Part shown: one piece after another, positions 4,840 through 45,508 of the stretch
Layout of the letters: the number at the start of each line of letters is the position of its first letter
Position numbering within the stretch: position 1 is the stretch's first letter
NCBI GenBank assembly: GCA_030625325.1
Contig: DAOURA010000001.1
Location: 1,579-65,578, forward strand
Source: Marinosulfonomonas sp.
Lineage (GTDB): Bacteria; Pseudomonadota; Alphaproteobacteria; Rhodobacterales; Rhodobacteraceae
Length of the DNA stretch: 64,000 nt
Direction of reading: 5' to 3'
The notes under the pieces: model-generated
What the model was told of the DNA's origin: nothing
The model's database searches: none
Seen by the model: only the letters and a program-made list of their open reading frames with translations
Made by a program: the position numbers and the translations under genes

Positions 4840-5088
4840 ATGCTAAGCATAATGCCCTACCCCATTGCCAAAATTCAGGTGCCGGCCAAGCGGGCCAAGA
4901 CCCGCGATGCGGCCAAGGTTGAAGAAATCGCCAACAGCATTCTGGAAGAAGGTCAACTGACGCCAATTCAGTTGCGCGCGGCGGGGGATAAGTTTGTTCT
5001 GATTGAAGGCCTGCACCGGTTAGAGGCCTTAAAGGCGCTGGGCGAAACCGAGGTTGACGGCTATCTGGTGCAGGCACGCCGCCACTAG
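4840..5088 (+). CDS. stand-alone ParB/sulfiredoxin N-terminal-domain protein (82 aa)
   Basis: The sequence IQVPAKRAKTRD...LTPIQLRAAGDKFVLIEGLHRLEALKALG matches the ParB N-domain pattern (..v.r....y.li.G.hR..A...lG). I moved the start to the ATG at 4840 (MLSIMPYP). Confidence 0.7.
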   Translation: MLSIMPYPIAKIQVPAKRAKTRDAAKVEEIANSILEEGQLTPIQLRAAGDKFVLIEGLHRLEALKALGETEVDGYLVQARRH

Positions 5089-5096
5089 GGAGTGGA

Positions 5097-5735: not shown

Positions 5736-5804
5736 AGGTTTTGCAGGGCAAATTTTCGAAAAATCAGGTAATATACGATCAGGCGCGGCGCACCCTAGCC
5801 GGGC

Positions 5805-6266
5805 TTAAAACGCGTCGGGCTTGGCTTCCCTTGCCATGTGATCCAGCACAGCGTTAACAAATTTTGCCTCTTTTCCCTCTGGGAAAAATGCTTTGGCCAC
5901 ATCGACAAATTCAACGATCACCACCTTTGGTGGCGTGTTGATATGGGACATTTCAGCGCCTGCGGCGCGAAACAGGGCGCGCAGGGTTGGATCAATGCGG
6001 GCAATCGGCCATTTGGCAACCAGTGCCCGATCAGTCATCTGATCAATAGCCGCCTGATAATTCACGGCACCTTCAACCAGTTCACGAAACAGGTTCAGGT
6101 TCCCCTCGGCCATTTCGTCACCTTCGTAGGTGGCGCCAAAACGGTGGTCTTCGAATTCTGCAGTGATCGCTTCTATGGTCTGATCAGTGCTTTCCATCTG
6201 AAACAGGGCCTGCACCGCGTAAAGGCGGGCGGCGGATTTCATCTGGCGTTTGTCTGGTTTGCTCAT
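5805..6266 (-). CDS. nusB: transcription antitermination factor NusB
   Basis: The N-terminus ARLYAVQALFQME is NusB-like, the length is 153 aa, and the gene sits in the usual position after ribH. Its start overlaps the ribH stop. Confidence 0.92.
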   Translation of the reverse strand: MSKPDKRQMKSAARLYAVQALFQMESTDQTIEAITAEFEDHRFGATYEGDEMAEGNLNLFRELVEGAVNYQAAIDQMTDRALVAKWPIARIDPTLRALFRAAGAEMSHINTPPKVVIVEFVDVAKAFFPEGKEAKFVNAVLDHMAREAKPDAF

Positions 6267-6808
6267 GTGGTTTTCGGGCCTTTGTTACCGCCTGCCATCA
6301 GGGTGTTTTCCGACTGAAAGCCGATGCCACCCTTTGAACGGCCCCATTTGCGCGTTAGTGCGATAAGATGCAAGGCCGCAGCGGCCGCACCACCACCTTT
6401 ATTTTGATCGCTCGGGTCTGCGCGCACCTCTGCCTGTTGGCGGTTTTCCACGGTCAGGATGCCATTTCCGATACAACAGGCATCAAGCCCCAGCAATTGT
6501 AGGGCGCGCGAACTGTCATTGCACACAGTATCATAATGGGTGGTTTCCCCCCGGATCACACAACCAAGGGCGACAAAACCATCAAAATCAGACTGCCGGT
6601 CGGCGATGCGGATTGCAGTGGGGATTTCCAGCGCACCGGGCACCTGAACCACGTCATAACTGGCGCCGGCCTGTTCCAGCGTGGCCTTGGCCCCGGCCAG
6701 CATATTATCGGCGATATCCTTATAATAAGGTGCCACAACGATCAGCACCTTTAGCGGGTCACTGAAACTTGGCAGATCAAGGATGTGGTGGTTTTCAGTG
6801 CTGGCCAT
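6263..6808 (-). CDS. ribH: 6,7-dimethyl-8-ribityllumazine synthase
   Basis: VPGALEIP, GCVIRGETTHYD and NGILT are lumazine synthase motifs. I moved the start to MASTENHH (6808), abutting the ribB stop. Confidence 0.9.
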   Translation of the reverse strand: MASTENHHILDLPSFSDPLKVLIVVAPYYKDIADNMLAGAKATLEQAGASYDVVQVPGALEIPTAIRIADRQSDFDGFVALGCVIRGETTHYDTVCNDSSRALQLLGLDACCIGNGILTVENRQQAEVRADPSDQNKGGGAAAAALHLIALTRKWGRSKGGIGFQSENTLMAGGNKGPKTT

Positions 6809-6809
6809 A

Positions 6810-7928
6810 TCAGGTGTCCGTTGGAATAGGGTGGGTGCCGACGATGGATAAACCATAAGCGTCCAGACCGATCACGTTAGGAATAGGCGAATTGGTCAGC
6901 AATGTCAGGGCCGAAAGGTTCAGGGCCGCCAGAATTTGCGCCCCCAGCCCGTATTGGCGCAGGGTTTGCGGGGATTGTTCATCACCGCGCACCAGCTTCA
7001 TGCCGGTGTCGCGCATCATCACAATCACGCCGCGCCCGGCCTTTGCGATCACCTGCATGGCATTTTCCAGATCACTGCTGGTGCGTCCGATGCCCAGCAC
7101 GTCTTCCACCGGGTTCAGGGAATGGACCCGCACCAGCACAGGTTCATCGGTGGAAATGTCCCCCTTGGACAGAACCACATGTTCGTCCCCATGGGTTTCA
7201 TCAACAAATATCCGCATCTGCCAGTCGCCGCCAAAGGCCGAGCTGACGATGCTTTGGGATGTTTCGCGCACAAGGTGGTCATTGCGACGACGATAGCGGA
7301 TCAGATCAGAAATCGTACCGATGTTCAGCTTATGATGCTGTGCAAAGCCCACAAGATCCGGCAGGCGGGCCATGGTACCGTCGTCATTCATGATCTCACA
7401 GATCACGCCTGATGGGTTCAGCCCGGCAAGGCGGCTGATGTCAACGGCGGCCTCTGTATGACCAGCGCGCACCAGCACACCCCCGTCACGCGCGCGCAGC
7501 GGAAACACATGGCCCGGTGTGGCGATGTCCTGGGGGCCATTGTTTTCGTCAATTGCGGCGGCCACCGTCAGGGCGCGGTCATGGGCAGAGATACCCGTTG
7601 TGACGCCCTCTCGGGCCTCAATTGAAATGGTAAAGGCGGTTTCATGGCGTGACGAATTATAGGACGCCATCAGTGGCAGGCCCAGGGCATCAATGCGTTC
7701 ACTGGTCAGGGTCAGGCAGATCAGGCCGCGCCCGTAGGTGGCCATGAAATTCACAGCTTCAGGTGTGGCCATCTGGGCGGGAATAACCAGATCGCCTTCG
7801 TTTTCTCGATCTTCGTGATCCACAAGGATGAACATGCGCCCGTTGCGCGCGTCTTCGATGATATCTTCGATCGGGGAAACCGCATCAAGGATATCCTGGT
7901 TCGGGGATACGGGGTTATTGGTGTTCAT
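6810..7928 (-). CDS. ribB: 3,4-dihydroxy-2-butanone-4-phosphate synthase fused to a degenerate GTP cyclohydrolase II-like domain (RibBX type)
   Basis: The N-terminal half carries DRENEGDL and GHTEAAVD, which are DHBP synthase motifs. The C-terminal half aligns to GCH II, but the zinc-ligand Cys cluster is missing: it reads VRVHSLNPVEDVLG where HSECLTGD..C.C is expected. Confidence 0.88.
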   Translation of the reverse strand: MNTNNPVSPNQDILDAVSPIEDIIEDARNGRMFILVDHEDRENEGDLVIPAQMATPEAVNFMATYGRGLICLTLTSERIDALGLPLMASYNSSRHETAFTISIEAREGVTTGISAHDRALTVAAAIDENNGPQDIATPGHVFPLRARDGGVLVRAGHTEAAVDISRLAGLNPSGVICEIMNDDGTMARLPDLVGFAQHHKLNIGTISDLIRYRRRNDHLVRETSQSIVSSAFGGDWQMRIFVDETHGDEHVVLSKGDISTDEPVLVRVHSLNPVEDVLGIGRTSSDLENAMQVIAKAGRGVIVMMRDTGMKLVRGDEQSPQTLRQYGLGAQILAALNLSALTLLTNSPIPNVIGLDAYGLSIVGTHPIPTDT

Positions 7929-8057
7929 GGGGGGGACTCACCTTAGCTGTGTTTGCTGCCAGATAACTGAAACGATCGCCAAGCGCCAGACAACACAAGG
8001 GCGCGGGGTCGTGTCGCAATTGTACGAAACCATTAAGTGGGAATTGCCCCCGCCGGG

Positions 8058-8100
8058 GGCAAGCCTGCGGCGCGGATATTTAAACGAAAAAGAAACCGGC
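8058..8100. repeat. intergenic repeat element, 3'-half copy A (ribE/ribB spacer)
   Basis: GGCAAGCCTGCGGCGCGGATATTTAAACGAAAAAGAAACCGGC aligns with the 3' halves of 22741-22816 and 34437-34514. Its first 13 nt also recur at 3752-3764. Confidence 0.6.
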
Positions 8101-8113
8101 ACGGATTTGGGGG

Positions 8114-8719
8114 CTAGGCCGGAAATTCATTCAGGCGGGCCACATAGCGCGCAAGGGTGTCAATTTCCAGGTTCACCGCATCACCAACACGCACATCCCC
8201 CCAGGTTGTGACCTGTTTGGTGTGGGTAATCAGGTTGATACCAAAATCAACGCCGCAAACTTCGTTCACCGTCAGGGATGTACCGTTCAGGGCAACCGAG
8301 CCTTTGGGCGCAATAAAGCGGGCCAGATCAGCCGGTGCGCCCAGCACAATCCGGGTGCTGTCGCCTTCGTCAGTCACCGATTTCACCAGCGCAACGCCGT
8401 CCACATGGCCCGACACGATATGCCCGCCCAGTTCGTCACCAACCTTTAACGGGCGTTCCAGATTGATGCGCTGGTCCTGTGACCAGTCATTCTGGCCGAT
8501 GTTGGTTTTGGACACAGTTTCAGCCGAGATTTCCACATCAAACCAGCCCTGCGGATCAGTCCCCAGTGCCACCACCGTCAGGCAGACCCCGTTACAGGCG
8601 ATCGATGCCCCGATCTGGATGCCCGAAATGTCATAGTTCGTGCCGATACGTGCGTGCAGATCACCATGCTGTTTTACGGCCAGAACCGTGCCAACATCAG
8701 AAATAATACCTGTAAACAT
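8114..8719 (-). CDS. ribE: riboflavin synthase alpha chain
   Basis: The sequence MFTGIISDVG...GDSIA-like repeat (GASIACNGVCLTV / GSVALNGTSLTV) is the duplicated lumazine-binding motif. The tracked ORF to 8854 carries a 45-aa non-native extension. Confidence 0.9.
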   Translation of the reverse strand: MFTGIISDVGTVLAVKQHGDLHARIGTNYDISGIQIGASIACNGVCLTVVALGTDPQGWFDVEISAETVSKTNIGQNDWSQDQRINLERPLKVGDELGGHIVSGHVDGVALVKSVTDEGDSTRIVLGAPADLARFIAPKGSVALNGTSLTVNEVCGVDFGINLITHTKQVTTWGDVRVGDAVNLEIDTLARYVARLNEFPA

Positions 8720-8876
8720 CTTTGGTCCCCTTTGTTGATTATGGCCTATCGTTTGATCTGGTGGCTGGCAAGGCGACGAATTGGCAGGTTTGCAGCGGGG
8801 CGGGGTAAAGTTTCTGGTCAATTGATGAAATTTTAACGATGTTGCAGACATCATCGCGGTTCAGGAAAGTCAAACA

Positions 8877-33134: not shown

Positions 33135-34421
33135 ATGGCTAAACCCCTACGTCTTGGAATTGCCGGGCTTGGCACGGTGGGAACCGGTCTCGTGAAAATT
33201 GTTCAGCGCCACGCCGACCTTCTGGCCGCCCGCACCGGGCGCGCGGTGGTGATTTCTGCCGTTTCTGCCCGCTCGCGTGACAAGGACCGCGGCGTGCGTC
33301 TGGGCGGATATGCCTGGGAAGACGACCCGGTTGCCCTGGCGCAGCGCGACGATGTTGATGTTTTTGTTGAATTGATGGGCGGCGCAGACGGCCCGGCCCT
33401 AACCGCCACGCAGGCGGCGATTGCGGCGGGCAAAGACGTGGTAACGGCCAATAAGGCAATGCTGGCGCTGCATGGCAACGAACTGGCCAGTGCCGCCGAG
33501 GCCGCCGATCTGGTTATCCGCTTTGAGGCCGCCGTTGCCGGGGGCATCCCGGTTGTCAAAGCCCTAAGCGAAGGGCTGGCCGCGAATGAGATCGCCCGGA
33601 TCATGGGGGTGATGAATGGCACCTGCAATTTCATCCTGACCAAAATGGAAGCCGAGAACCTGACCTATGATGCGGTTTTCGCCGAGGCAGACAGCCTTGG
33701 CTATCTGGAAGCCGACCCGACACTGGATGTCGGGGGGATTGACGCGGGGCACAAACTGTCACTGCTGGCGTCGATAGCCTTTGGCACAAAGGTTGATTTT
33801 GACGCCGTTCGTCTGGAAGGCATCGAAAAGATCACCATCGAAGACATCGAACAGGCGGCCGATATGGGCTATCGCATCAAATTGCTGGGGGTTGCACAGA
33901 TGTCAGGGCGTGGGCTGGAACAGCGCATGTCGCCCTGCCTTGTGCCCGCCAGCAGCCCATTGGGCCAGTTGGAAGGCGCAACAAATATGGTGGTTCTGAA
34001 CGGCGACGCCGTGGGGCAGATTGTGTTGCGCGGCGCCGGTGCCGGTGAAGGCCCAACCGCCAGCGCCGTGATGGCCGACGTGATGGATATTGCACGCGGC
34101 ATTCGGGTTTCCACCTTTGGGCAACCCGCCGCCAGCCTGACACAGGCCAAAACCGCAGGGTCCAACGTGCCTGCCCCCTATTACCTGCGCATGCAGCTAA
34201 AGGACAAACCCGGCGCACTGGCCAAGATTGCAACGGTGCTGGGGGATAGCGGAATTTCTATTGATCGGATGCGTCAGTACAGCCACAGCGACCCAACCGC
34301 ACCGGTATTGATTGTCACCCATAAAACCAGCCGCCCGGCCCTGGGCGAAGCGATTGCCGCGATGGCCGCAACCGGGGTTTTGGCGGGGGAGCCAGTAGCG
34401 TTGCGCATCGAAGAAGTCTGA
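33135..34421 (+). CDS. hom: homoserine dehydrogenase
   Basis: LRLGIAGLGTVGTG is the NAD motif. The catalytic domain and a C-terminal ACT domain are present. Length is 428 aa. Confidence 0.93.
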   Translation: MAKPLRLGIAGLGTVGTGLVKIVQRHADLLAARTGRAVVISAVSARSRDKDRGVRLGGYAWEDDPVALAQRDDVDVFVELMGGADGPALTATQAAIAAGKDVVTANKAMLALHGNELASAAEAADLVIRFEAAVAGGIPVVKALSEGLAANEIARIMGVMNGTCNFILTKMEAENLTYDAVFAEADSLGYLEADPTLDVGGIDAGHKLSLLASIAFGTKVDFDAVRLEGIEKITIEDIEQAADMGYRIKLLGVAQMSGRGLEQRMSPCLVPASSPLGQLEGATNMVVLNGDAVGQIVLRGAGAGEGPTASAVMADVMDIARGIRVSTFGQPAASLTQAKTAGSNVPAPYYLRMQLKDKPGALAKIATVLGDSGISIDRMRQYSHSDPTAPVLIVTHKTSRPALGEAIAAMAATGVLAGEPVALRIEEV

Positions 34422-34524: not shown

Positions 34525-35832
34525 TCACCATAACGGGCCAAAAGCGCGGAACTGTATTGCTTCAAGTATGACGGCATTCGTATTCAGGGTGTAGACTTTG
34601 TTTGTTTCCTGACTGTCTTCATATATTCCAGCGGGCCAGCCATCTGTGGCTGAACCGAGGGGGGCGATATAGTCCATCAGGTCCGATGTGTATTTCGTAT
34701 CAAAGATAGCATCCCAAGCGAAAACTGCCTTTAGGCTAAGGGTGCGTTTGTCGGGGTGCGCCTCTCCGCTTTCGGCAAGTACGGCCCATTCAACGCCATC
34801 ACTATAAACCGAAGAATACAAAAAATATGGTGGTTGGTCGATGTGATCTTCTGAAACCATCGTCGGAATGCCAGTCCGCTTGAAGCGCGCTTCCTGTGCC
34901 AAGTATATATGTTCGGCCAGTATGCGGCTTTCACTATCAAACCCATATTCCAGCCCCTGAAGAATATAAGGTTCACTGAGCGTGGGGGAAATTGCCTGAA
35001 AGGACGCAGATTGTCGCAAATCAATGGGGATTTCCACGCCTTCAACAGTTTCCCATTCCATGATGCGGCGGGCGGAAAAGGCAAGGCCAACATCCATTCC
35101 CCACATGGCAGCGGCGCGGGCACCGTATTGTTCATATCCGATCCGCCCTTCCTGACGTGATACCAGTACGCCGCCTTCACGGTTTGTACCGATCAGGTCC
35201 CCCCGGTGGGCCATTGCACCAAGGTCCCATTTATTGACAACACTTCGAATATTATCGCCGTACTGGGGCGCATGCCGTTCCAGCACCCGGAATGACAACA
35301 GCATTCTGGAAACATCCAGCGCCGACCACCCTATACCATTTTCTTCGATCCCATTTTCGTAATTCACCATTGCAAGGGATTGGGTATTATAGACCTTATT
35401 AGGCAACTGACCATCCACCAGATCAAGCAATAAAAATGATTGTAAAAGCCTGGATACCCTTTCATCAAAGCCCTGTTCATCAAGAATTTTCAGCCTGTAT
35501 GCAGACACAAGCGCCATCAGGTAAGAACCCTGATCCCACAAGGTGCTTGATGCAATGCCGGCGACCGCGTTGGCCAGGCCGGTTTCAGGGTTGGTATTAT
35601 CTTTGAAATACGCCCAGGCAATTTGCGCCGCCTGCCGGTCCGCCTTGGACAGGGGGCGTTCACCGGGCACCTCAAGCAATAATGGCTGGGTAAGGTTGAT
35701 GCGCTCTGTGTCTGAAACCGAAACCAATCGGGCCGCACCATCCAGATAAATTGCGGCACCAATTGCGATAAGCAATCCGGCGATGAAAAACAGCGGTGAC
35801 CTGGAGGTCGGAATATTATGCGTTTTGGGCAT
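34525..35832 (-). CDS. membrane-anchored periplasmic protein, DUF3131-like (paralogue A)
   Basis: An N-terminal TM anchor (LFFIAGLLIAIGAAIY) is present. The blocks ETGLANAV, LPNKVY, QEGRIGYEQY, LQGLEYGFD, YFLYSSVYSDG and NTNAVILEA are shared with 40420-42108. The family name is from memory and was not verified. Confidence 0.7.
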   Translation of the reverse strand: MPKTHNIPTSRSPLFFIAGLLIAIGAAIYLDGAARLVSVSDTERINLTQPLLLEVPGERPLSKADRQAAQIAWAYFKDNTNPETGLANAVAGIASSTLWDQGSYLMALVSAYRLKILDEQGFDERVSRLLQSFLLLDLVDGQLPNKVYNTQSLAMVNYENGIEENGIGWSALDVSRMLLSFRVLERHAPQYGDNIRSVVNKWDLGAMAHRGDLIGTNREGGVLVSRQEGRIGYEQYGARAAAMWGMDVGLAFSARRIMEWETVEGVEIPIDLRQSASFQAISPTLSEPYILQGLEYGFDSESRILAEHIYLAQEARFKRTGIPTMVSEDHIDQPPYFLYSSVYSDGVEWAVLAESGEAHPDKRTLSLKAVFAWDAIFDTKYTSDLMDYIAPLGSATDGWPAGIYEDSQETNKVYTLNTNAVILEAIQFRAFGPLW

Positions 35833-37603
35833 TTAACAGGCCTCCGGCTGGTGGTTTTTTTCGTTTGTTCATGTGGGGGCCCGGGGGGGTCCATAAACTC
35901 ATCCTGATGATTTTCACAAAGGAAAGCCCGCCCCAGAAAATCCAGAATAAATTAACAACCAAAAGGGAACTGCTATAGCCTTTGATGTGTAACATTGTTG
36001 AAAATACCCCCCAAATCACCGCAACCAAAAACAGCAACAGCACCATGATGGCCGGTATCGCATAACGCATTCTTTGCGTTGCAAATAACGTTTTTGGGGT
36101 GGTCGGAAACCCCAGTTTTTTTTGGCGAAGAACCTGGAAAAGCCCTTTGATTTGCAATGGGATGGTCGCAATGGCCATCACCCGGCCAGCATGGGTACTG
36201 TAGCCCTTGCAGGCAACATGCATGGCCAGTTCGTTCACCAGCAATGCAGGCAATAAATGCACAAAAAATTCAAGCGAGAACGCCTTAACCGGCGACAGGG
36301 CCGTAAACAGGGAAACCACGGGCGCAAACAACAAAACCGGCATCCAAAGCACAGCAAGGTATGACCAGAATGTTGCGCCATAGTGCAGTTTGGTTGCCGC
36401 CGGTATGCCCCCCATCAATAACGGGTTGGCCCTGAGCATGATATCAAAGGTTCCGCCAGCATATTTCAACCGCTGGGTAGACCAGGCCTGCATGGTCATG
36501 GGCGAAAGCATCCGGGCCTCAATATCCGGGTGAAATACCGATTTCCACCCGCGGGCCTGCATCAAAATGGATGTATAGATGTCTTCCGAAACATGGAATT
36601 TGTAAGGCTCAAGCTGAACCATGTGCAGTACAGATTTTTCGCCAATGCGCTTTTTTATTTTATGAACTTGCTGGCCTTTATAATGCAGCGCATTTGAAAA
36701 CACGGCCTCACGGCGGTGTATTGACCCCGCACCACAGCAAAACGATGCATTATTCCGGTTTCTGCGCCGTTGTATAATATCAAAAAAGATCACCGGGTCC
36801 GAAAGAAACGGATCCCGCCCTATTTTCTGTTCTCCGGTGATAAACCCCATAATTCGCACCAGATAGGGGCGAAGGGCGCCGGGAACCGGGCTTAAGACCG
36901 CCATCCAGTCCCGCCCTTGCGGGATATCATAAAACCACTGGGGGGTTTGAACCCATGCAACTTTTGGATCCCGGAAATACCCCAGAGTATTCATAAGAAA
37001 CCCTGGGAAGACACGCGTATCCGCATCGCAGATCAGAACAAAGTCACCCCTGGTCTGCATAAGTGCGCTGCAAAGATTGCCGGCTTTGTACCCGATATTA
37101 TTTTCCCGCCGCAGGTAATTAACCTGCTGCCGGTTTGCCAGGTCGCGCATGCAATCGCGGCCCCCGTCATCAAGAACATGAATACTCAGGCTGACACCGG
37201 CAGGAAGTTTCAGCGCCTTTGCATCAGTAATAGATGGCCCGACAATATCAGTGCTTTCATCGAAGGTGGTTATAAACAGGTCCACGGTGATGTTGCCATC
37301 ATCTTCAAGGTGGGCATCGCGCCGACAACCGGGCGGGGGGGCTTTGGGGGTGTCCTGTTCACGCCATATGTCATGAAAAGACAAAACCGTGCCGATGAAA
37401 GCCATAGTCTCGGCAATGGCGACACTAACTGAAAAAACCATAGCGTCCGGGTTTAACGAAGCCGTCCAGCGCCAGTGCAGATACCACAGGGCCAACCCGG
37501 CAGTCAGCCCCGCCAGCACATGCCAAAGACCGTGCCGAAATGGGGACATATAGGTGGTTGCGGGGGGGCGGACATGATCAAATGCCCTGAAGTAAGGCTT
37601 CAT
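35816..37603 (-). CDS. BcsA-like processive family-2 glycosyltransferase (membrane-embedded glycan synthase) without a PilZ domain
   Basis: The motifs are colinear with cellulose synthase: LDDGGRD, GYKAGN, CDADT, VQTPQWF, FCCGAGSIHRR, VSEDIYTS and QRLKYAGG (in place of QxxRW). Two N-terminal TM helices and several C-terminal ones are present. Confidence 0.82.
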   Translation of the reverse strand: MKPYFRAFDHVRPPATTYMSPFRHGLWHVLAGLTAGLALWYLHWRWTASLNPDAMVFSVSVAIAETMAFIGTVLSFHDIWREQDTPKAPPPGCRRDAHLEDDGNITVDLFITTFDESTDIVGPSITDAKALKLPAGVSLSIHVLDDGGRDCMRDLANRQQVNYLRRENNIGYKAGNLCSALMQTRGDFVLICDADTRVFPGFLMNTLGYFRDPKVAWVQTPQWFYDIPQGRDWMAVLSPVPGALRPYLVRIMGFITGEQKIGRDPFLSDPVIFFDIIQRRRNRNNASFCCGAGSIHRREAVFSNALHYKGQQVHKIKKRIGEKSVLHMVQLEPYKFHVSEDIYTSILMQARGWKSVFHPDIEARMLSPMTMQAWSTQRLKYAGGTFDIMLRANPLLMGGIPAATKLHYGATFWSYLAVLWMPVLLFAPVVSLFTALSPVKAFSLEFFVHLLPALLVNELAMHVACKGYSTHAGRVMAIATIPLQIKGLFQVLRQKKLGFPTTPKTLFATQRMRYAIPAIMVLLLFLVAVIWGVFSTMLHIKGYSSSLLVVNLFWIFWGGLSFVKIIRMSLWTPPGPHMNKRKKPPAGGLLNAQNA

Positions 37604-39102
37604 TGTGCTTTTGCTGCCTGTGTTTGATCACGCCCGGCGTCCGGGGCTGTTGTGCGCGCCTCACCAACATATTCCAGAGGGTCCATGTTTTGGGGGCTTC
37701 CATCCGCAAACTGAATGGCAACCGACCAATTCGGGTGGGTTATCTGACCATCAATAATGGCCCCTTTCTGAACATGGGTGTTGGGCATGACCATGCTGTT
37801 ACGCACAATACTGCGCCCACTTATGATGGCCCCGCGCCCAATAACTGCGGGGCCTTCTATTTTTGCCCCTGCTGAAATCTTTGCGCCGGGGCCAATATAG
37901 CATGGGCCAGATATTTTGGCCCGCCGTGATATAATGGCGTCCTTGTCCACCCATTGCAGCGGGTTTCGCAAAACCCCCTCGGGGGTGGCATTGGGAACAT
38001 GGCCGCCCAAAACCGACACGGCAGCCGCAAAATAGTCTTTTGCGCATCCTATATCTGTCCAGGAAAAGCCCTGGCTATAGGCATGCATTGCACCGCCGGC
38101 ATCCATAATGCGCGGCAACAGGTCGGCGCCAATATCCTGATCATGCATTTCCTGCATCAGTGACAAAACACGCGGGTTAAAAATATAAATCCCGGTATTT
38201 GCCAGTGTAGAATCTATGGTTCCACGGGCAGGCTTTTCTTTGAACCTAAGAATACGGCCATTCACATCAACATCTATCATCCCGTATTTATGGGTTTTAT
38301 CGGAAGGAACGCTAAGTGTGGCGATGGTTACATCTGCATCGGTTCTTTGATGCTGGGCCAGCATATCGGCCAGATCTATGTCGATAAGCGCATCACCACA
38401 AACGACCAGAAAGTCGGAATTAAACGCGTTGTGATCTGCTTGCAGCTTCCTGATGGTAGAGGCGGAGCCAAGCGGGCCTGGCTTCCATATTCCATTCCAG
38501 TAATTCCCTTCGTTCAGATAAAAAACAGACTGAAACGGTCTGGAATTTTTTGCAAAATAACTATGAATTTGCGGCCCAAGATGGCCGGGATTCAGAAAAA
38601 CTTCCCTTATGCCAAAGCTTTCAAGGTGGTCCAGTATGCGCGCAAGCACGGGTTTTCCCAGCATGTCCAGCATTGGTTTTGGCACTTCATCACTCAAAGG
38701 TGCCAGCCGCGCGCCCCTACCTGCACACAGCACCAGCACCCGCAGGTCCGCCAACTGGCAGGCACGAAACTGTGGTGCTTTCAGGACATGCTGCACATCA
38801 TCAAAGTGCTGGATGGAATGTTCAAGATTTCCGGCCACCAGACGCCGGATGATGCTGTTTGAAAGGCTGCACAGGGCCGCAGGTATCGCATGGGGGCGGG
38901 ACACCATTTCAACCAGAGAGGTTATGCCACTTATACTTACCCGTGAAACTTTTGCGCAATCCAGAATGACAAGGCGCTTTCCCTGTTGCTGCAGGCGAAA
39001 TATGATCCGCTCCAGTGCCGCCAGGGAATCTGTATGCACCAATGGGCCAAAAACCTTAATCACGGCCACGCAATCACCGCGGGCTTCAATTTCAAACACC
39101 AT
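37600..39102 (-). CDS. STAS domain fused to a sugar-1-phosphate nucleotidyltransferase with a left-handed beta-helix C-terminus
   Basis: Residues 1-110 or so look like an anti-sigma antagonist (VAVIKVFGPLVHTDSLAALERII...LVILDCAKVSRVSISGITSLVEMV). Next comes LCAGRGARLAPLSDEVPKPML, the GxGxRxxPL..PK NTP-transferase signature. The C-terminus has hexapeptide repeats (GPGAKISAGAKIEGPAVIGRGAIISG). Confidence 0.8.
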   Translation of the reverse strand: MVFEIEARGDCVAVIKVFGPLVHTDSLAALERIIFRLQQQGKRLVILDCAKVSRVSISGITSLVEMVSRPHAIPAALCSLSNSIIRRLVAGNLEHSIQHFDDVQHVLKAPQFRACQLADLRVLVLCAGRGARLAPLSDEVPKPMLDMLGKPVLARILDHLESFGIREVFLNPGHLGPQIHSYFAKNSRPFQSVFYLNEGNYWNGIWKPGPLGSASTIRKLQADHNAFNSDFLVVCGDALIDIDLADMLAQHQRTDADVTIATLSVPSDKTHKYGMIDVDVNGRILRFKEKPARGTIDSTLANTGIYIFNPRVLSLMQEMHDQDIGADLLPRIMDAGGAMHAYSQGFSWTDIGCAKDYFAAAVSVLGGHVPNATPEGVLRNPLQWVDKDAIISRRAKISGPCYIGPGAKISAGAKIEGPAVIGRGAIISGRSIVRNSMVMPNTHVQKGAIIDGQITHPNWSVAIQFADGSPQNMDPLEYVGEARTTAPDAGRDQTQAAKAQ

Positions 39103-40236
39103 TTATGCTTTCTCCGGCTTGGCAGGGATGGCCCTGCTGTAGCCTGGCAATGGCCCAAGGCCGATCGTCCATGCAAACAGGGATGAACGGCGCAGTACAA
39201 CGACCAGAACACCGGTTGCCGGCAGCACCACGCCAATTTTCACCAACACCTGCAGCGTCGGTGAAAGGCCGCGGCCATGAATACCGATTTCAGCAAGATC
39301 AAGAAAAATGGGGTGGCACAGGTAAATGCCAAATGAATAGGGCGCTATACGGGACAAAACCAACGGCCAGTTGCGGTGCGCCAGTGACATGGCCCCCAGA
39401 AACAACAGCACCGGCATCAAAAAATCGGCCCAGTACCCAGGTAAATAGTCAAACGGCCACACGCCCGTTTCAATGGTCCTTTGGGTGGCAATCAGCTTTA
39501 ATAAAAACAGTACAAGCCCTGCAAACAACACCGGGGGGAACCAGCCCCCCATACCTTTGCCCCCTGCCCGCTTCCACAGCCCAAGTGCGGCCCCCGCGAC
39601 AAGGCCATACCCAATATATGTGATGATTTTGGTGATTCTTACCAGATAGGGCAGCGCCTCAGTCCCCCAGTGATTCTGGTAAATATAACCATCAACCTGT
39701 TGGCGGAGCATAAGACATATAAAAACCCCCAGCCCCAGCAAAGGATAGCGAATTGCCAGACGGTATATTGGATAAAACAGCACCAGACCAAATAAGGTCG
39801 GAATAAAATGCATGTGGTACTTAACACTGCCTAAAATAGCGTAACCAACCCACTTTTCCGGGTTCAGAAGGTCATTCACAACCGAATCGTAATAGCCAAA
39901 TGCGTTGGCCTTTATCAATCCGTAAAAGGCGTAAAACAGTGTCCAGAATGCAAAGGGAACCAGTAAACGGCGCGATTGCTCGGCCAGTGTCTGGCGATAG
40001 GTTCGTGGTGTTTTTTCATGGGCCAGAAGCAAAAGGAAAAGCGCGATTATCAGAAAAAGCTCTGTGCGGGCGGTATAAACAACGGCCCGCAACAGCATTG
40101 GCCCCACTCTCTCGGATTGACTATAGGCAACCCACGGCTGGCCGGTGGGGTCGGCGGTGGCATGCAGGACAACTATCGATATGCCGGCTGTAATTCGCAC
40201 CGCATCAATCCAGATTTGCCGATCATCTTTTTGCAT
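39103..40236 (-). CDS. acyltransferase family 3 integral membrane protein (O-acyl/succinyl transferase type)
   Basis: IWIDAVRITAGISIVVLH is the N-terminal motif. The protein has about 10 TM helices and is 377 aa. It is the first gene of the minus-strand operon. Confidence 0.78.
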   Translation of the reverse strand: MQKDDRQIWIDAVRITAGISIVVLHATADPTGQPWVAYSQSERVGPMLLRAVVYTARTELFLIIALFLLLLAHEKTPRTYRQTLAEQSRRLLVPFAFWTLFYAFYGLIKANAFGYYDSVVNDLLNPEKWVGYAILGSVKYHMHFIPTLFGLVLFYPIYRLAIRYPLLGLGVFICLMLRQQVDGYIYQNHWGTEALPYLVRITKIITYIGYGLVAGAALGLWKRAGGKGMGGWFPPVLFAGLVLFLLKLIATQRTIETGVWPFDYLPGYWADFLMPVLLFLGAMSLAHRNWPLVLSRIAPYSFGIYLCHPIFLDLAEIGIHGRGLSPTLQVLVKIGVVLPATGVLVVVLRRSSLFAWTIGLGPLPGYSRAIPAKPEKA

Positions 40237-40304
40237 TGGTACCCTCCTGGTTGCCCACCTGACTTGGAGAGAATTAGAAAAAATTTAGTGAACGTTCTGC
40301 GATT

Positions 40305-40324
40305 TATACAATTTTTTTTGTATA
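40305..40324. promoter_or_regulatory. palindrome in the divergent control region of the glycan island
   Basis: TATACAA-TTTTTT-TTGTATA has perfect 7-bp arms. It sits in a 183-bp A+T-rich spacer between the two divergent operons. Confidence 0.35.
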
Positions 40325-40419
40325 ATCCGGATCAGGCCGGTACGGATCGGAACTCTTGGTGGAATATTAACTATTACTCACGAAAACCCCTGCTAACGCA
40401 TGACTACAGTGGATATTTC

Positions 40420-42108
40420 ATGAGCAACCCAGAAAACAAACCCGATCGCTTAAACCTTGGCCGTGGTATCATTATTTTTTTGGTATCCATATCAATTTTA
40501 ATTGGGGCCACCTGGTCTGTTGCTTCGTTCGCCCGCATCCTGTTTTTGAGCCACGAAGAAATAAACCCGATAATTGCCGGTGGGGACCTGGACGATTTAC
40601 CTGCATTGATGCGGGGTAATATTTCGACCGTCACAACCAGCATGGTTCGGGGCGAACCGGTGCGGGTTAAACCGCCGCGCATGTGTGAAATGTCGCCCAC
40701 CTATTTTGACAATTTGGACAAGGGCCTGAAACAGCCGGTCGGGTACACCCGCCGAAATGAATATGTCAGCCCCTATCGTGCCCGCCGTGGTTTCCTGAAC
40801 GAACGTGAAATGCAAGCCGCGCGTGTGGCCTGGTTGTATTTTGAAACCTACACTCAGGAAGAAACCGGGCTGGCCAATGCGGTGGGCAATTACCCATCAA
40901 CCACAATGTGGGATACGGCCTCTTATATTGCGGCAACCGTTGCGGCATATGAACTGTGCATTATTGAAAAACCGGAACTTGACCAGCGCCTGTTTCAACT
41001 ACTGGCCACCATGAAAACACTTGATCTGTTTCGCAAGGAACTACCTAATAAAGTGTACCATACCCGCACAGCAGCCAAGGTGGACTATGCGAATAAACCG
41101 GGGGAAATTGGCTTCTCCGGGCTGGACCTTGGTCGTATGCTTATCTGGCTTCGCATCATCAAAAACCGCTATCCTTACCTTGGTAATTCAGTCGATGCCA
41201 TTTTGCTTAAATGGGATTTCAGAAATGTCATCGGGGAACAGGGGCTGATTTATGGCGCGCGCATCAACAGCGAAACAAATGAAACCATCTATGATCAGGA
41301 AGGGCGCCTTGGGTATGAAGAATATGCCGCCAAAGGCTATGCGCTTTGGGGCTTCAAGCCAATACTTGCCCACCGGGCCGAGCCATTTCTGACGGCTTCG
41401 ATCTACGGTATTCAGGTCCCCTATGACGGCCGTGATCCGCGGATTTTTCATTCTCAGAACTACGTTGTAACCGAATCCTACCTGCAGGACGGGTTGGAGC
41501 TTGGCTTTGACATGGTCCACGATGACAGCAGCCCCGACTGGCTGCGATCGGATGGGTGGCGCGGCGAATTTGCCGACCGGATTTATAACGTGCAGGAAAA
41601 TCGCTGGCGCCAGACCGGGTTCATGACTGCGCGCTCGGAACATAACGTAAAGGGTGCGCCCTATTTCACATATGATACAATTTTTTCTGATGGTTACCCC
41701 TGGAACACGGTAACCCCACGGGGGGATTATGTACCGGATCATGCCGCTATTTCATCCAAAGCAGCGCTTGGGATGTGGGCGCTTTGGGATACCGACTATA
41801 CCAACATTCTTTATGAAGCGATTATTGAGCTCTACAACCCGGAAAAAGGTATGTTTGAAGGGCTGTATGAACGCGGTCAGGGCCGGGTGGAAATTTTCAC
41901 CGCAAATAACAACGGGATCATTCTAACGGCCCTGTTGCATAAAGTTCAGGGAAAAATACTGACCCCATACACCGGTGATGCAGAGGTCTGGTATACCGCA
42001 TTTCGCGATCAAAACATCCGGGAACGCCGTCACTATCCTGATCCCCCGCAAGAAGATGACTGGCTTCCCGCCTTGCGCCATTCCATCCAGAACAAGGAAG
42101 ACTTTTAA
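40420..42108 (+). CDS. membrane-anchored periplasmic protein, DUF3131-like (paralogue B, longer)
   Basis: The start was moved to the ATG at 40420 (MSNPENKPDRLNLGRGIIIFLVSISILIGATW, a TM anchor); the tracked ORF from 39976 runs antisense through the acyltransferase gene. The shared blocks are ETGLANAV, LPNKVY, QEGRLGYEEY, LQDGLELGFD, YFTYDTIFSDG and NNNGIILTA. Confidence 0.72.
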   Translation: MSNPENKPDRLNLGRGIIIFLVSISILIGATWSVASFARILFLSHEEINPIIAGGDLDDLPALMRGNISTVTTSMVRGEPVRVKPPRMCEMSPTYFDNLDKGLKQPVGYTRRNEYVSPYRARRGFLNEREMQAARVAWLYFETYTQEETGLANAVGNYPSTTMWDTASYIAATVAAYELCIIEKPELDQRLFQLLATMKTLDLFRKELPNKVYHTRTAAKVDYANKPGEIGFSGLDLGRMLIWLRIIKNRYPYLGNSVDAILLKWDFRNVIGEQGLIYGARINSETNETIYDQEGRLGYEEYAAKGYALWGFKPILAHRAEPFLTASIYGIQVPYDGRDPRIFHSQNYVVTESYLQDGLELGFDMVHDDSSPDWLRSDGWRGEFADRIYNVQENRWRQTGFMTARSEHNVKGAPYFTYDTIFSDGYPWNTVTPRGDYVPDHAAISSKAALGMWALWDTDYTNILYEAIIELYNPEKGMFEGLYERGQGRVEIFTANNNGIILTALLHKVQGKILTPYTGDAEVWYTAFRDQNIRERRHYPDPPQEDDWLPALRHSIQNKEDF

Positions 42109-43262
42109 TGAATAAATCTGTTTTTAAATGTACAATCTCGCTGATATTTTTCTGTGGGCCGGCATTGGCCCAGGACGAAGTCGCCGAATTTTCCCCCGGA
42201 AATGCGATTCTGGACACAACAATTCCCTTTGCCGCCGATGCCCGGGAAGCCGAACAGGCACTACGTGGCGCCTATGGCTGGGCAACATTTCAGGAGGGGG
42301 TGATCGAGGGCATATATTTTCGCTTTGACCCGGACGGATACGCCAGGTTTTCAACAACCCCACGCCTGGATACCGATGTATTCGAAGTGATCTGCACCCC
42401 TAAAACTACGTCCTGTCTGGGGCAAAAGGGGGCTCTAAGCATCCAACTGAATGACCAGGGGGGCCTTCAGTTAACACTTGCGAATATTTCATCCGGCGAT
42501 AATTTTTTTATCGTAGACGACCTTACAGAGCTGTCATTGCCTAACATAATATTACAACCCTTGGATAACCGCCTGGAAGGCTTATTTGCCTCAGGGGGGG
42601 AGCTTCTTGTTCGCCACGGCGCAACAGAAACCCTGCGTATCCCGCTAAGTGGGTTTTCAACTGTCTCCACCTATCTAAGGTGGGTCGCGTCGGGGCAGGA
42701 CGATGCCAGTTTCCCATATGGCTGGCCTGTTTCGGTTTCCAAAACCGTCGCAACAACTGGGGACTTGCCAACCCAGACAAGCAACCAGCAACCCCCGGCG
42801 CGTATAGAACAGGCCATCGCACCGGAAGCTACGGTTTTGAGCGAAACACTTACCAACACGCAGCGTATTGCAGAACTGGAAAACCAAATTGCGGCCCTTT
42901 TGGCCAACAAAACTGAAATATCCAGCCCCCCCCCGGCAGATGCGGAAGCCGTGGATGAAACCAGCAAAGCCACCCCAGACATCAAGGAATTACCCGCCAA
43001 ACCCAGTGAAGCTGAAATCCTGTCAACGCGGTTAAATTACCTGATGACCGAAATAGGTTTGGATTCAGCAAGCGCGCTAACGTTACTTCAGCGGACAAAG
43101 CCACCACAGGCCCCACCCGTCTGCCCGGAAGTTATAGGCGGAAATGTTGCAGACACTGCAACCGAGCCTATGGAGCACCTTCTGCAAAAATTCAGTCGGA
43201 CGGCGCACTCGGGGATAAAAACAATTCTCACGTACTTTCCACGCAAGATTACCCAGCCTTAA
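42108..43262 (+). CDS. secreted hypothetical protein (signal peptide, Pro/Ala-rich linker, coiled-coil-like segment)
   Basis: MNKSVFKCTISLIFFCGPALAQDE is a Sec signal peptide. The ATG overlaps the upstream stop (TAATG). No family was recognised. Confidence 0.6.
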   Translation: MNKSVFKCTISLIFFCGPALAQDEVAEFSPGNAILDTTIPFAADAREAEQALRGAYGWATFQEGVIEGIYFRFDPDGYARFSTTPRLDTDVFEVICTPKTTSCLGQKGALSIQLNDQGGLQLTLANISSGDNFFIVDDLTELSLPNIILQPLDNRLEGLFASGGELLVRHGATETLRIPLSGFSTVSTYLRWVASGQDDASFPYGWPVSVSKTVATTGDLPTQTSNQQPPARIEQAIAPEATVLSETLTNTQRIAELENQIAALLANKTEISSPPPADAEAVDETSKATPDIKELPAKPSEAEILSTRLNYLMTEIGLDSASALTLLQRTKPPQAPPVCPEVIGGNVADTATEPMEHLLQKFSRTAHSGIKTILTYFPRKITQP

Positions 43263-43528
43263 CAAGCTACTTTAAGTCAATATTTACATAAAAATATGCC
43301 GGTGGCCCCAATAACCAAGCGTGTCTCGGTTTAATGCGATTCCCAACGGGCTCGTATAATTCTAAGTGGCCCTGCAAAATTGAACGGTTTGTTAAAATGC
43401 ATCTAAACGAGATGAAGAAGTGCCAAAATGAGGGAACGGCAGAAATTTTCGAATCATGCCGATATCTACTGTTTTTTAACACTATTTTTTTATTGTGAGG
43501 GTGTTTTTACCATATTTGGCGGCAATAC

Positions 43529-45508
43529 ATGTCTAGCTCTGTTCAAAAAATTCCCGGTCATGACAAGACGGCAACCACCAGCATACGCATGGAAACGCCG
43601 TCGGCTGATCCTGTGCATATAATGGATCGAAAAGCACCTGCATGGGCCCTTATCCTCGGCAGTATTTTTTCAGTAGGGGTTTTCTTTTGCCTGGCAAGTG
43701 TCGCCATATTCGCCATCTTTTTTCAAACACTGGTGGTCGGGCGCGGCGAAGACATATTAGCACCTCTGTTGATGATGGTCGCCGTAGTTCCGATGCTAGG
43801 CATTGTTGTTCTGGAATATGCGCACAACAAAATCCTAAGCGGATATCGTCACATTCGCGAACTCAACGCGCGGCGCGCCAGGGCCGCTGCCGGGGTTTTC
43901 GTGTTCGCCACACTGGTATTTTTACACCCACTTGCGGGCGTTGGCATATTGGCGGGAAGCATCGGCGGGCTATTGTTTTTATGGATATTAAGCAGGCTGA
44001 AACGCCGTGAACCCATGTGGGATTTTATCGCACAGGAAGCTGTCCCGATTTTGTCTGGCCGGGATTTTCACGGGTTGGAAATCGCCACACAACCGGCGCC
44101 CGAACATCCACTGGCCGGGGCTGTGCAAATGGCGATGATGGGCATCAGTGTGCTAAGCGCGCTTTCAACCTCCACATGGCTGGTTTCAAATGAGGTACTC
44201 GCCCCGGCCGCAGTTCTGGCGGTTTCCTTGCTGAGCTTATGGTCCACAGACGCGATCCTTGGATACATACGCCAGTTTTTGAAAACACCGCCACTACTTG
44301 ATCGGGCAACATCCCATGTGAACGCTGTGCCCGGATCAATTGAAGACGATGACTTCGCAGGTCTACTGATCAAGAACCTCAGCGTATTTAGCGATGACGG
44401 AAAAATATTAATCTCGGATTTAAACCTTAAAGCGGCCCCCGGCTCCATTACTGGTATTATGGGGGACAGCGGTGCTGGCAAAAGTCTGCTACTGCGGTCA
44501 ATCATTGACCCCTTTTCACTTTCCGGGCTGGAAATTCACGGGAACGTGCGGGTAAATTGCCATGACCTGTGGCACCGGGACGGGCAGCCCCACAGCCTGC
44601 CGGCCACTTATTTGTCCGACAACCCAATAATCTTACCCACCTCAGGCCATCAAAACCTGTCCTGTTTTCACGGTAATCAGGTTCTTGAACGGGGCCGGCG
44701 AATTTTAGAAAAGATGGTTTTTTCATCTGAACTTGCCGAAAAAATTTGCGCCCATAAAAACGCAGAAACCCTGCCCGGAATGCAGAAGAAAATGTTGGCC
44801 GCATCCCGTGCCTTTCTATTAAGCCCGGACCTGTACCTGATCGACGGGCCAGAAGACGGATTACCTGAAAAACAGATATCCATGCTGCTGGCGCAACTGA
44901 AACAAGAAACCAAACTGGGGCGAACTGTACTTCTGGTCACGCAAAACCGGGCCTTAGCCGAAGCCTGCGACACACTGATTATCATGCAGGAAGGCCGGAT
45001 CATAGATGAAGGAACCTCTGCTGAGGTACGAACACGGCAAGCAGCAGGTTGGGCCCGCTTTGTTGGTGAACGAAATCTGAATATAGACGAAAACCTGGAA
45101 ACCTGGGTCAGGTCCCATTTTAAACGTCCAGGCGACGAGATGAACCGCCGAAAGGTCTGCCATATTGCCTCAGAAATGCTTGCACATTCCTGCCAGAGCC
45201 GGAATGCGCTGGTGCAGCAATCCGTTACTTTTGAATTCAAGCACTATGAAGGGTACTGTGAAATCAGCATTCAGGATTCAGACCCGCCGATCAGCGCAGC
45301 GCAGCTGGATAAGGCCCGCCAGTCAATTGAAGATCCAGATGGCGACAGCCGCCTGACACCACTGGCCTTGATCATTGGAAGCAGCCTGTCTGTTGATGCC
45401 AGTTCAGAGCTGGATCAACGCAAAATCCTGGTGAAGGTTGCAACGATTGACCCGCGCAAAAAAGCCCGGGCAAGTCAGGGCAAAGGCACCAACATCAAAA
45501 ACGGCTAA
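43529..45508 (+). CDS. fusion protein: about 6 TM helices, a degenerate ABC-type ATPase domain, and an RsbW/SpoIIAB-like C-terminal domain
   Basis: Walker A is GDSGAGKS and the signature-like motif is LPGMQKKM. Walker B is LYLIDGPEDG (Gly where the catalytic Glu is expected) and the H-loop is LLVTQN (Gln where His is expected). The last ~130 aa follow the anti-sigma kinase pattern (VCHIASEMLAHS...CEISIQDSDPPIS), but the N-box Asn and the G-boxes are not evident. Confidence 0.68.
   Translation: MSSSVQKIPGHDKTATTSIRMETPSADPVHIMDRKAPAWALILGSIFSVGVFFCLASVAIFAIFFQTLVVGRGEDILAPLLMMVAVVPMLGIVVLEYAHNKILSGYRHIRELNARRARAAAGVFVFATLVFLHPLAGVGILAGSIGGLLFLWILSRLKRREPMWDFIAQEAVPILSGRDFHGLEIATQPAPEHPLAGAVQMAMMGISVLSALSTSTWLVSNEVLAPAAVLAVSLLSLWSTDAILGYIRQFLKTPPLLDRATSHVNAVPGSIEDDDFAGLLIKNLSVFSDDGKILISDLNLKAAPGSITGIMGDSGAGKSLLLRSIIDPFSLSGLEIHGNVRVNCHDLWHRDGQPHSLPATYLSDNPIILPTSGHQNLSCFHGNQVLERGRRILEKMVFSSELAEKICAHKNAETLPGMQKKMLAASRAFLLSPDLYLIDGPEDGLPEKQISMLLAQLKQETKLGRTVLLVTQNRALAEACDTLIIMQEGRIIDEGTSAEVRTRQAAGWARFVGERNLNIDENLETWVRSHFKRPGDEMNRRKVCHIASEMLAHSCQSRNALVQQSVTFEFKHYEGYCEISIQDSDPPISAAQLDKARQSIEDPDGDSRLTPLALIIGSSLSVDASSELDQRKILVKVATIDPRKKARASQGKGTNIKNG

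Follow-up and report, generated by a model that had tools for sequence, protein, structure and literature searches.

We analyzed a 64,000-nucleotide stretch of DNA from Marinosulfonomonas sp. (GenBank assembly GCA_030625325.1, contig DAOURA010000001.1; hereafter the window), which carries an open reading frame (ORF) at 43529..45508 on the forward strand that starts with ATG and encodes 659 amino acids. Based on the ORF, a family alignment and an AlphaFold2 model, the whole gene encodes an ATP-binding cassette (ABC) protein composed of a transmembrane domain (TMD), a degenerate nucleotide-binding domain (NBD) and a C-terminal domain (C-domain) predicted to be of the pseudo-GHKL type. The gene closes a putative glucan-synthesis island (34525-45508) located between hom (33135-34421) and glpX-recJ (from ~45617), in which a STAS domain fused to a sugar-nucleotide pyrophosphorylase is encoded 4.4 kb from the ABC gene. 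We refer to the family of 67 full-length degenerate members to which the protein belongs as group A.

Domain architecture and descent of the ABC protein

The NBD (residues 279-506; 44363..45046) was recognized from its Pfam match, its motif register and the motif counts in the 67 sequences. An earlier note on this DNA, written without database searches, had called an ABC domain with an intact Walker A motif and without the catalytic Glu and the H-loop His, and had named PF00005 as a check. Residues 296-441 match this profile (ABC_tran) significantly, with 41.6 bits against a cut-off of 25 (E = 2.4e-10). No Pfam family, ABC_membrane included, matched residues 1-270 or 510-659, and the NCBIfam matches covered the NBD region only and fell far below their family cut-offs, the best being CydD and type I secretion ABC proteins. 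The PrtD model TIGR01842 scored 60 bits against a cut-off of 510, again in the NBD region only, which does not place the window protein in that family.

We set the register of the NBD motifs by comparing the family profile with ABCB structures and by aligning the family to canonical relatives. Walker A, or the P-loop (GDSGAGKS, residues 312-319; 44462..44485), agrees with GxxGxGK[ST], and the Walker B strand keeps its hhhhD pattern with D439. Elsewhere the residues of a competent ATPase have been replaced. In the Walker B region (LIDGPEDG, residues 437-444; 44837..44860) the catalytic Glu is G440; the signature reads LPGMQ for LSGGQ (residues 415-419; 44771..44785); the H-loop (VTQN, residues 470-473; 44936..44947) has Q472 in place of His, as placed by the ABCB alignment; the Q-loop Gln is D364; and the D-loop is of the P446 type.

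The same degeneracy runs through all of the 67 full-length group A members, not only through the one sequence whose motifs the earlier note had read correctly. Both Walker A glycines and the Walker B Asp are present in 67/67 and the Walker A Lys in 66/67. The catalytic Glu after the Walker B Asp occurs in 0/67; Arg takes its place in 50, Gln in 5, Thr in 3 and Met in 3, and the full range of residues (R, Q, T, M, L, G, H, C and V) never includes an acidic one. The H-loop His survives in one member, the Q-loop Gln in two, the second signature Gly in six (Ser and Pro are found in the signature of 32 and 30) and the D-loop Asp in nine. The P-E-D-G of the Walker B region is invariant across the family, and the most conserved 15-residue segment of the whole protein is this altered Walker B (YL-D-R-P-E-D-G-L-P; conservation 0.68). 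In HlyB-type and other NBDs, loss of either the Glu or the His is enough to stop hydrolysis, and ATP can still bind. Because five catalytic or communication motifs have been lost at once, it is very unlikely, judging from these motifs, that group A proteins are pumping ATPases.

The C-domain (residues 507-650; 45047..45478) was delimited from AlphaFold2 and Foldseek results together with weak matches to PF13581; the full-length model described below shows it as a compact unit at residues 509-650. When residues 500-659 were modeled alone using 21 homologues, the prediction was confident (predicted local distance difference test (pLDDT) 88, predicted template modeling score 0.81) and had a beta-alpha-alpha-beta-beta-alpha-alpha-beta-beta order. 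All of the top 12 Foldseek matches in the PDB were SpoIIAB (1TIL, 1TH8, 1L0O, 1TID and 1THN) or RsbW (6M36 and 6M37), with E values of 8e-7 to 4e-4 and template modeling scores (TM-scores) of 0.65-0.77 on the target, and the next were Mycobacterium tuberculosis UsfX and histidine-kinase catalytic domains. The model thus has the Bergerat fold, which bears out the SpoIIAB/RsbW-like layout that had been suspected from the sequence. A Wzt-like carbohydrate-binding module, also considered for this region, was ruled out by the same alpha/beta GHKL fold.

At the sequence level, the likeness falls below significance. The proposed search with PF13581 (HATPase_c_2) gave no match for the window C-domain and a weak one for 4/21 relatives (best E = 0.011), which made it the commonest weak Pfam match among members. 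The C-domain profile retrieved only chance matches from PDB sequences, and its hhalign comparison to a SpoIIAB/RsbW alignment was not significant (probability 3%) and was used solely for its register, which agrees with the fold. In this register, SpoIIAB E46 corresponds to E549 and is kept; the Mg-binding N50 of the N-box falls at H553, a site that is variable and hydrophobic across group A; in place of the G1 box DxGxG stands D583-S-D-P-P, with the Asp kept; and the lid region contains no glycine (G2, GxxGxG) box. The absence of the N-box Asn and of the G1 and G2 glycines, on which the earlier note had based its pseudo-kinase caveat, is therefore confirmed by the alignment register. The model and register together indicate a kinase-dead SpoIIAB/RsbW-like domain from which neither ATP binding nor kinase activity is expected.

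The TMD (residues 38-251; 43640..44281) is a compact bundle of six helices, placed by a full-length AlphaFold2 model (pLDDT 82.7, 24 homologues) and by an hhalign alignment to canonical relatives with gaps in the intracellular loops (ICLs). The predicted helices are 24-34 residues long (38-71, 77-102, 107-132, 134-160, 196-220 and 228-251) and are joined by tiny periplasmic loops of 1-7 residues. The best-conserved part of the TMD is the cytoplasmic loop ICL2 (residues 161-195; 44009..44113; EPMWDF...SGRD), which occupies the coupling-helix position; its conservation is 0.49-0.59, and W164, G177, R178 and D179 are invariant. The full-length model matched type IV exporters in the PDB with a TM-score of only ~0.33, a value that does not settle the class of the TMD.

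Its homology was settled instead by profile-profile comparison with a second set of proteins, group B (690-706 aa), which were recovered as the weaker matches of the C-domain profile search. Group B proteins have a PrtD-type TMD, a canonical NBD (LSAGQ, D-E-P and H-loop) and the same C-terminal domain as group A. One member matched TIGR01842 over the full model (E = 2.5e-121, 406 bits); beyond residue 538, where the model stops, this protein continues into the extra domain. Another, from Pseudaestuariivita atlantica, carries the annotation type I secretion permease/ATPase. At three loci, group B genes lie in operons of the form RTX (DUF6923)-ABC-adaptor, with an AprE/HlyD adaptor (L004, 2927-9756; L169, 1-4905; L171, 7219-13370). 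Groups A and B coexist in the P. atlantica genome and are adjacent in L004. The presence of a SpoIIAB-like domain on functional, canonical type I secretion system (T1SS) ABC proteins seems to be undescribed.

Groups A and B aligned with a probability of 100% (E = 2e-48) over 555 columns, from the first transmembrane helices to the C-terminus, with gaps indicating that group A has lost ~60-70 residues of cytoplasmic helix extensions. This sequence comparison shows that group A descends from PrtD-type T1SS ABC half-transporters that already carried a SpoIIAB/RsbW-like C-terminal domain, and by the same alignment its TMD derives from the T1SS/type IV fold by truncation and is not an unrelated fold. 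The six short-looped helices described in the earlier note are therefore supported by the model, and its claim that they differ from the type IV exporter fold is not, the two being homologous with the helix extensions mostly lost.

Group A is a narrowly distributed family. We found ~27 full-length relatives among 5.8 billion proteins, all from Roseobacter-group Paracoccaceae, after which generic ABC proteins followed at E = 1e-12, and an exhaustive search of 1.84 billion representatives with the C-domain profile yielded only 79 proteins. Databases name the relatives merely 'ATP-binding cassette domain-containing protein', and our literature search found no paper on an ABC protein with a SpoIIAB-like domain. 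Between pairs of Shimia genomes, the ratio of nonsynonymous to synonymous polymorphism (pN/pS) was 0.03-0.18 in the TMD, NBD and C-domain alike, and only 3/69 conserved columns differ in the window protein, each by a conservative change. These substitution patterns show that all three domains are under purifying selection in the relatives, where degeneracy is a family trait and not decay.

The putative glucan island and its relatives

In the relatives, the group A gene has a partner that the earlier note overlooked and that is missing here. In nearly all group A loci, the stop codon of the ABC gene is overlapped by the gene that follows, which encodes an HlyD-type adaptor; this 390-445-aa protein has an N-terminal anchor and a coiled coil, matches Pfam HlyD_3 above the cut-off and has a type I HlyD adaptor family as its top NCBIfam match. 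Groups A and B each have an adaptor of their own. In the closest relative (L084, 66% identity) the ABC-adaptor pair lies beside the glucan operon. In the window, the order runs directly from the gene for a secreted protein to the ABC gene and on to glpX, and no adaptor was found across the whole 64 kb. The locus accordingly lacks the arrangement of a T1SS, an adjacent HlyD adaptor plus a substrate without a Sec signal, as the neighboring proteins bear a signal peptide or an anchor.

We found the same adaptor-less order on 21 contigs that came from several samples and include a second intact 659-aa variant. Compared with a sister strain (L172), the gene-wide ratio of nonsynonymous to synonymous substitution rates (dN/dS) was 0.24, against 0.03-0.14 for most neighbors. 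The synonymous and nonsynonymous changes between the two strains were distributed unevenly over the protein, with 2 and 8 in the NBD (44363-45046), 6 and 1 in the C-domain and 9 and 4 in the TMD; outside the NBD the totals were 15 and 5 (Fisher's exact test of NBD versus rest, P = 0.007). The NBD changes include N473S, in the H-loop region. Small as they are, these counts fit a lineage in which the NBD may matter less and the membrane-anchored C-domain may still be needed.

The other island genes encode the putative glucan machinery. On the reverse strand, a BcsA-like processive glycosyltransferase family 2 (GT2) glucan synthase (35816..37603) matches BcsA in the PDB (E = 1e-26) and the CelA model TIGR03030 (E = 3e-49, under its cut-off); we detected no PilZ domain in it. 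It is flanked on that strand by a 435-aa DUF3131 protein (34525..35832; Pfam), whose N-terminal membrane anchor was seen on inspection of the N-terminus, and by the fusion of STAS, nucleoside diphosphate (NDP)-sugar pyrophosphorylase and hexapeptide domains (37600..39102), assigned from Pfam, NCBIfam and the family alignment. A membrane protein of the Acyltransferase_3 family (39103..40236, reverse strand; Pfam) follows.

On the forward strand lie a membrane-anchored 562-aa DUF3131 protein (40420..42108; Pfam) and a secreted 384-aa protein without a Pfam family (42108..43262), the latter identified from its ORF and from the relatives' neighborhoods. Mechanical ORF calling had made the former too long (39976-42108; 710 aa from a TTG start), so that it ran into the acyltransferase gene on the opposite strand; orthologues and sister strains place the true start at 40420, where an N-terminal membrane anchor begins the protein. 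These two genes are the steadiest neighbors of the group A gene, adjacent to it in 17/18 loci and usually divergent, and in relatives the secreted-protein gene invariably comes after that of the 562-aa DUF3131 protein. The 562-aa protein is also by far the most conserved in sequence, at 73-86% identity compared to 37-70% for other island genes. In the secreted protein, a Pro/Gln/Ala-rich linker joins a conserved N-terminal domain of ~200 aa to a C-terminal segment that is likewise conserved; the window copy (384 aa) is shorter than those of relatives (426-574 aa) and has the highest dN/dS of the island (0.30). For DUF3131 we found no sequence relative in the PDB, no NCBIfam family and no informative paper.

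Two further members of the system occur in relatives and are missing from the window: a 250-266-aa protein without a Pfam family, encoded between the STAS fusion and the GT2, and a small OmpA-family protein divergent from the acyltransferase gene. They are found at L002 (16403-17203 and 20034-20582), L084 (194-727) and L167-L170 (~8000-8800). In L169, the region 5054-7945, which separates the group B secretion operon from the STAS/GT2 operon, encodes a PilZ-domain protein and a HAMP-GGDEF diguanylate cyclase, an arrangement that hints at cyclic diguanylate (c-di-GMP) control of the glucan system in some genomes.

Because its G+C content (0.50-0.54) is below that of the flanks (0.58-0.62), we suggest that the island was acquired horizontally; the same genes occupy unrelated chromosomal sites in relatives, in differing orders. 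Rfam searches over the island gave no match and hence no riboswitch, and promoter and terminator scans around the ABC gene did not exceed shuffled expectation. Consistent with the earlier note, no sigma factor was present among the ten island and flanking genes scanned with Pfam, nor was a PP2C/RsbU-type phosphatase.

STAS docking and the role of the ABC protein

The co-occurrence of the ABC gene with the STAS fusion, which had been proposed as a check on a partnership between them, holds in most relatives. Among 19 assessable loci, the GT2/STAS operon lies within 10 kb of the group A gene in 13, runs past the edge of the locus in 4 and is missing from this distance in 2. Four distant fusions (31-40% identity to that of the window) were sampled in the opposite direction; three of them have a group A ABC gene and adaptor within 10 kb, and the fourth, L169, has the group B RTX system 5 kb away. 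The STAS fusion family is confined to the same Roseobacter-group bacteria. A metagenome scan seeded with the STAS-nucleotidyltransferase alignment added almost nothing on co-occurrence, as its patterns fell in the enzyme domain and 78/80 loci were ordinary NDP-sugar pyrophosphorylases without STAS.

Divergence also co-varies between the two proteins. Using mirror-tree comparisons (partial Mantel tests controlling for GT2 distances), we found that the C-domain correlated with STAS at r = 0.53 (P = 0.0005), with the pyrophosphorylase domain at r = 0.38 (P = 0.006), with the acyltransferase at r = 0.21 (P = 0.04) and with the 435-aa DUF3131 protein at r = 0.18 (P = 0.09). The NBD correlated with STAS almost as well as the C-domain did (r = 0.50, P = 0.0005), and neither the TMD (r = 0.13) nor the enzyme domain of the fusion itself (r = 0.11) correlated significantly with STAS. 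As evidence for docking this co-variation is suggestive only.

The STAS domain of the fusion (residues 1-108; 38779..39102, reverse strand; placed by alignment) keeps the S-G turn, and the G-x-G-x-R and PKPM motifs of the pyrophosphorylase are intact. The earlier note had proposed a partner-switching-like module, of which the STAS co-occurrence stands and the switching mechanism does not. Classical phosphorylation-driven partner switching is not supported by these sequences because the STAS domain lacks the phosphorylatable Ser, the kinase-like domain is predicted to be dead, without the ATP-binding residues, and no phosphatase was present among the island genes scanned. With these switching parts lacking, at most a phosphorylation-independent docking would be left, which we consider plausible; the fold match to STAS-binding anti-sigma kinases, the strong neighborhood link and the co-variation speak in its favor.

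We tentatively favor, with some doubt, a role for the protein as a non-hydrolyzing scaffold or regulator of the glucan system, with the non-phosphorylatable STAS domain as the best candidate ligand of its C-domain. The protein would bind nucleotide without hydrolyzing it, and hence would not pump, and would serve at the inner membrane as a scaffold or regulator for the BcsA-like GT2, the two anchored DUF3131 proteins and the acyltransferase. In most relatives it would anchor the HlyD-type periplasmic adaptor, which, by analogy with BgsA-BgsB-TolC, could form a passive duct powered by polymerization and not by ATP; in the window lineage, with no adaptor nearby, the TMD-anchored C-domain would be the part that still matters. 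As a kinase-dead protein-binding module, the C-domain would dock the STAS tag of the pyrophosphorylase and so tether or gate the sugar-nucleotide supply at the membrane beside the synthase. Such docking could be constitutive or ligand-controlled, without a phosphorylation-driven switch. Everything here, from the inability to hydrolyze ATP onward, is what we infer. The fullest version, in which a T1SS ABC protein has become a static pseudo-ATPase and pseudo-kinase platform that channels or gates substrate to the BcsA-like synthase (in relatives, beside an adaptor/TolC duct), seems doubtful. It would amount to a novel route for supplying a secreted glucan with substrate, assembled from secretion and partner-switching components that are both enzymatically dead.

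Several observations weigh against the scaffold role or the STAS docking, or limit them. The retained P-loop points to continued nucleotide binding, which we infer from motifs, and the aromatic residue of the A-loop is not conserved. NBD constraint may be relaxed in the adaptor-less lineage, a signal that rests on 10 substitutions. Neither glucan nor STAS genes lie within 10 kb of the group A gene in two loci (L004 and L005), a metagenomic STAS operon (L087) has no ABC gene within ~7 kb, and the P. atlantica group B operon (RTX-ABC-membrane fusion protein) has no STAS gene within 10 kb. At the position of SpoIIAA Ser58, all 20 aligned fusions have I, M, F, R, V, Q or similar and none has Ser or Thr. 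The mirror-tree tests used 14 related loci and are of a kind known to be liberal, and STAS also co-varied with the 435-aa DUF3131 protein (r = 0.39, P = 0.004). Finally, because group B proteins in RTX operons carry the same C-domain, its ancestral role, as read from the family relationships, is not STAS binding; with canonical RTX-secreting PrtD-type ABC proteins also having it, the domain is older than any tie to the STAS enzyme and did not arise for it.

This last point also favors the alternative that survives best, which we nevertheless regard as somewhat unlikely: that the C-domain is an intramolecular or dimerization appendage inherited from the T1SS ancestor, comparable to those of MalK, MetN and ModC, which holds or gates the NBD dimer and never touches STAS, so that the co-occurrence of ABC and STAS genes reflects shared membership of one glucan system. 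One of the RTX-secreting group B proteins that bear the domain has no STAS gene nearby, and no region tested correlates more strongly with the C-domain than the NBD does (partial r = 0.64). SpoIIAB and RsbW form obligate homodimers, which would suit a place beneath an NBD dimer. Against this, the fold is nearest to STAS-binding anti-sigma kinases and not to generic GHKL domains, the C-domain co-varies more with STAS than with the acyltransferase or the 435-aa DUF3131 protein, and the group B ABC gene of L169 lies 5 kb from a STAS operon.

It is improbable that the protein is still an active exporter of glucan, oligosaccharide or protein, either by non-canonical catalysis (for example, through the invariant E442) or as a heterodimer with a canonical ABC protein. 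The retained P-loop and Walker B Asp, the strong purifying selection on all domains, ICL1 and ICL2 included, the adaptor kept in relatives, the coexistence of groups A and B in P. atlantica and their adjacency in L004 would be expected of an exporter. The joint loss of five motifs in essentially all 67 members and the variable, never acidic residue after the Walker B Asp argue otherwise. We judged a group A/group B heterodimer unlikely, as the two TMDs differ in length, with group A lacking the long cytoplasmic helices of group B that a matched pair would need, and each group has a separate adaptor. Export of the polymer across the inner membrane by the ABC protein was likewise judged unlikely, given that the NBD is degenerate and that a BcsA-like synthase already offers a passage through this membrane.

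That the gene is, in the window lineage, a functionless relic heading for loss after the adjacent adaptor gene vanished is highly improbable: the missing adaptor, OmpA-like gene and 250-266-aa member, the NBD changes between the two strains and the raised gene-wide dN/dS would fit, but the full-length ORF has been preserved in two variants on 21 contigs, its few departures from conserved columns are conservative, and the C-domain and TMD changes are mostly synonymous.

Comparison with known systems

If the scaffold role is correct, the protein extends what is known in several directions. To our knowledge, degenerate ABC sites occur only when paired with an active one; a homodimer, as presumed here, would have two dead sites, and its maintenance by purifying selection would make it a natural experiment in the function of an ABC core that cannot hydrolyze ATP. 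A GHKL-type domain on T1SS ABC proteins, canonical or degenerate, was not found in the literature searched and represents an unexplored cytoplasmic interface. Were STAS docking true, the reach of STAS/RsbW modules would extend from phosphorylation switches to the permanent scaffolding of polysaccharide synthesis. The island would also point to an uncharacterized glucan system of the marine Roseobacter group, comprising a BcsA-like synthase, two DUF3131 proteins, an acyltransferase and a STAS-tagged pyrophosphorylase.

The closest relatives by descent are the PrtD/AprD ABC proteins of T1SSs (TIGR01842), which work with HlyD adaptors (TIGR01843). The likeness consists of end-to-end homology via group B, a six-helix topology with the N-terminus inside, conserved ICL1 and ICL2 and, in relatives, an HlyD-type adaptor as the next gene. 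In contrast to these transporters, the window protein retains just the P-loop and the Walker B Asp of the catalytic motifs, its helix extensions are shortened, and its neighbors are glucan genes, with no RTX substrate and no adaptor.

Degenerate ABC sites that hold ATP stably are known to have structural or regulatory roles (PMC7756269). Those of TM287/288, TmrAB, CFTR, SUR and ABCC1 resemble the group A site in having lost the Glu, the His and the signature while keeping the P-loop, but each of them pairs with a hydrolyzing site (PMC7756269), whereas the presumed homodimer here would contain two degenerate sites and no active one. Additional domains after the NBD are likewise familiar from the regulatory domains of MalK, MetN and ModC and the glycan-binding domain of Wzt, and the C-domain could, like them, dimerize beneath the NBDs and link a cytoplasmic signal or cargo to the ABC core; they are TOBE-like, ACT-like or beta-sandwich folds in contrast to the GHKL fold here, and the NBD that hosts the C-domain is inactive.

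The C-domain itself shares its fold and secondary-structure order with SpoIIAB, RsbW and UsfX, its sole strong PDB matches, and it keeps the N-box helix Glu and the G1 Asp of these kinases, with a STAS protein encoded nearby. It differs in lacking the N-box Asn and the G1 and G2 glycines, in forming the C-terminal end of a membrane ABC protein, in having no sigma factor among the genes scanned at its locus and in a sequence similarity that is under significance. RsbW-like kinases control a polysaccharide enzyme in Anabaena (the STAS-glycosyltransferase All4160 with HenR and Alr3423; PMC13555669), and SypA/SypE of Vibrio fischeri provide partner-switching-like control of polysaccharide (PMC10120452). 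Both combine a STAS domain, free or enzyme-fused, with an RsbW-like domain and control polysaccharide below transcription, as proposed here, but they depend on an active kinase acting on Ser and on a PP2C phosphatase, whereas here the STAS domain lacks this Ser, the kinase-like domain is predicted to be dead and the genes scanned include no such phosphatase.

The most similar glucan machinery is BgsA-BgsB-TolC of Sinorhizobium meliloti, a mixed-linkage beta-glucan system in which the adaptor forms a duct without an ATP-driven pump (PMC13438883). It combines a BcsA-like GT2 synthase with an HlyD-type membrane fusion protein and TolC, as relatives of the window system may do, and unlike the latter it has no ABC protein and no STAS enzyme and is controlled by c-di-GMP (PMC13438883). 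The parts of the window protein and its putative partner are known in kind, namely a type I secretion ABC protein, a GHKL pseudo-kinase and a STAS module.

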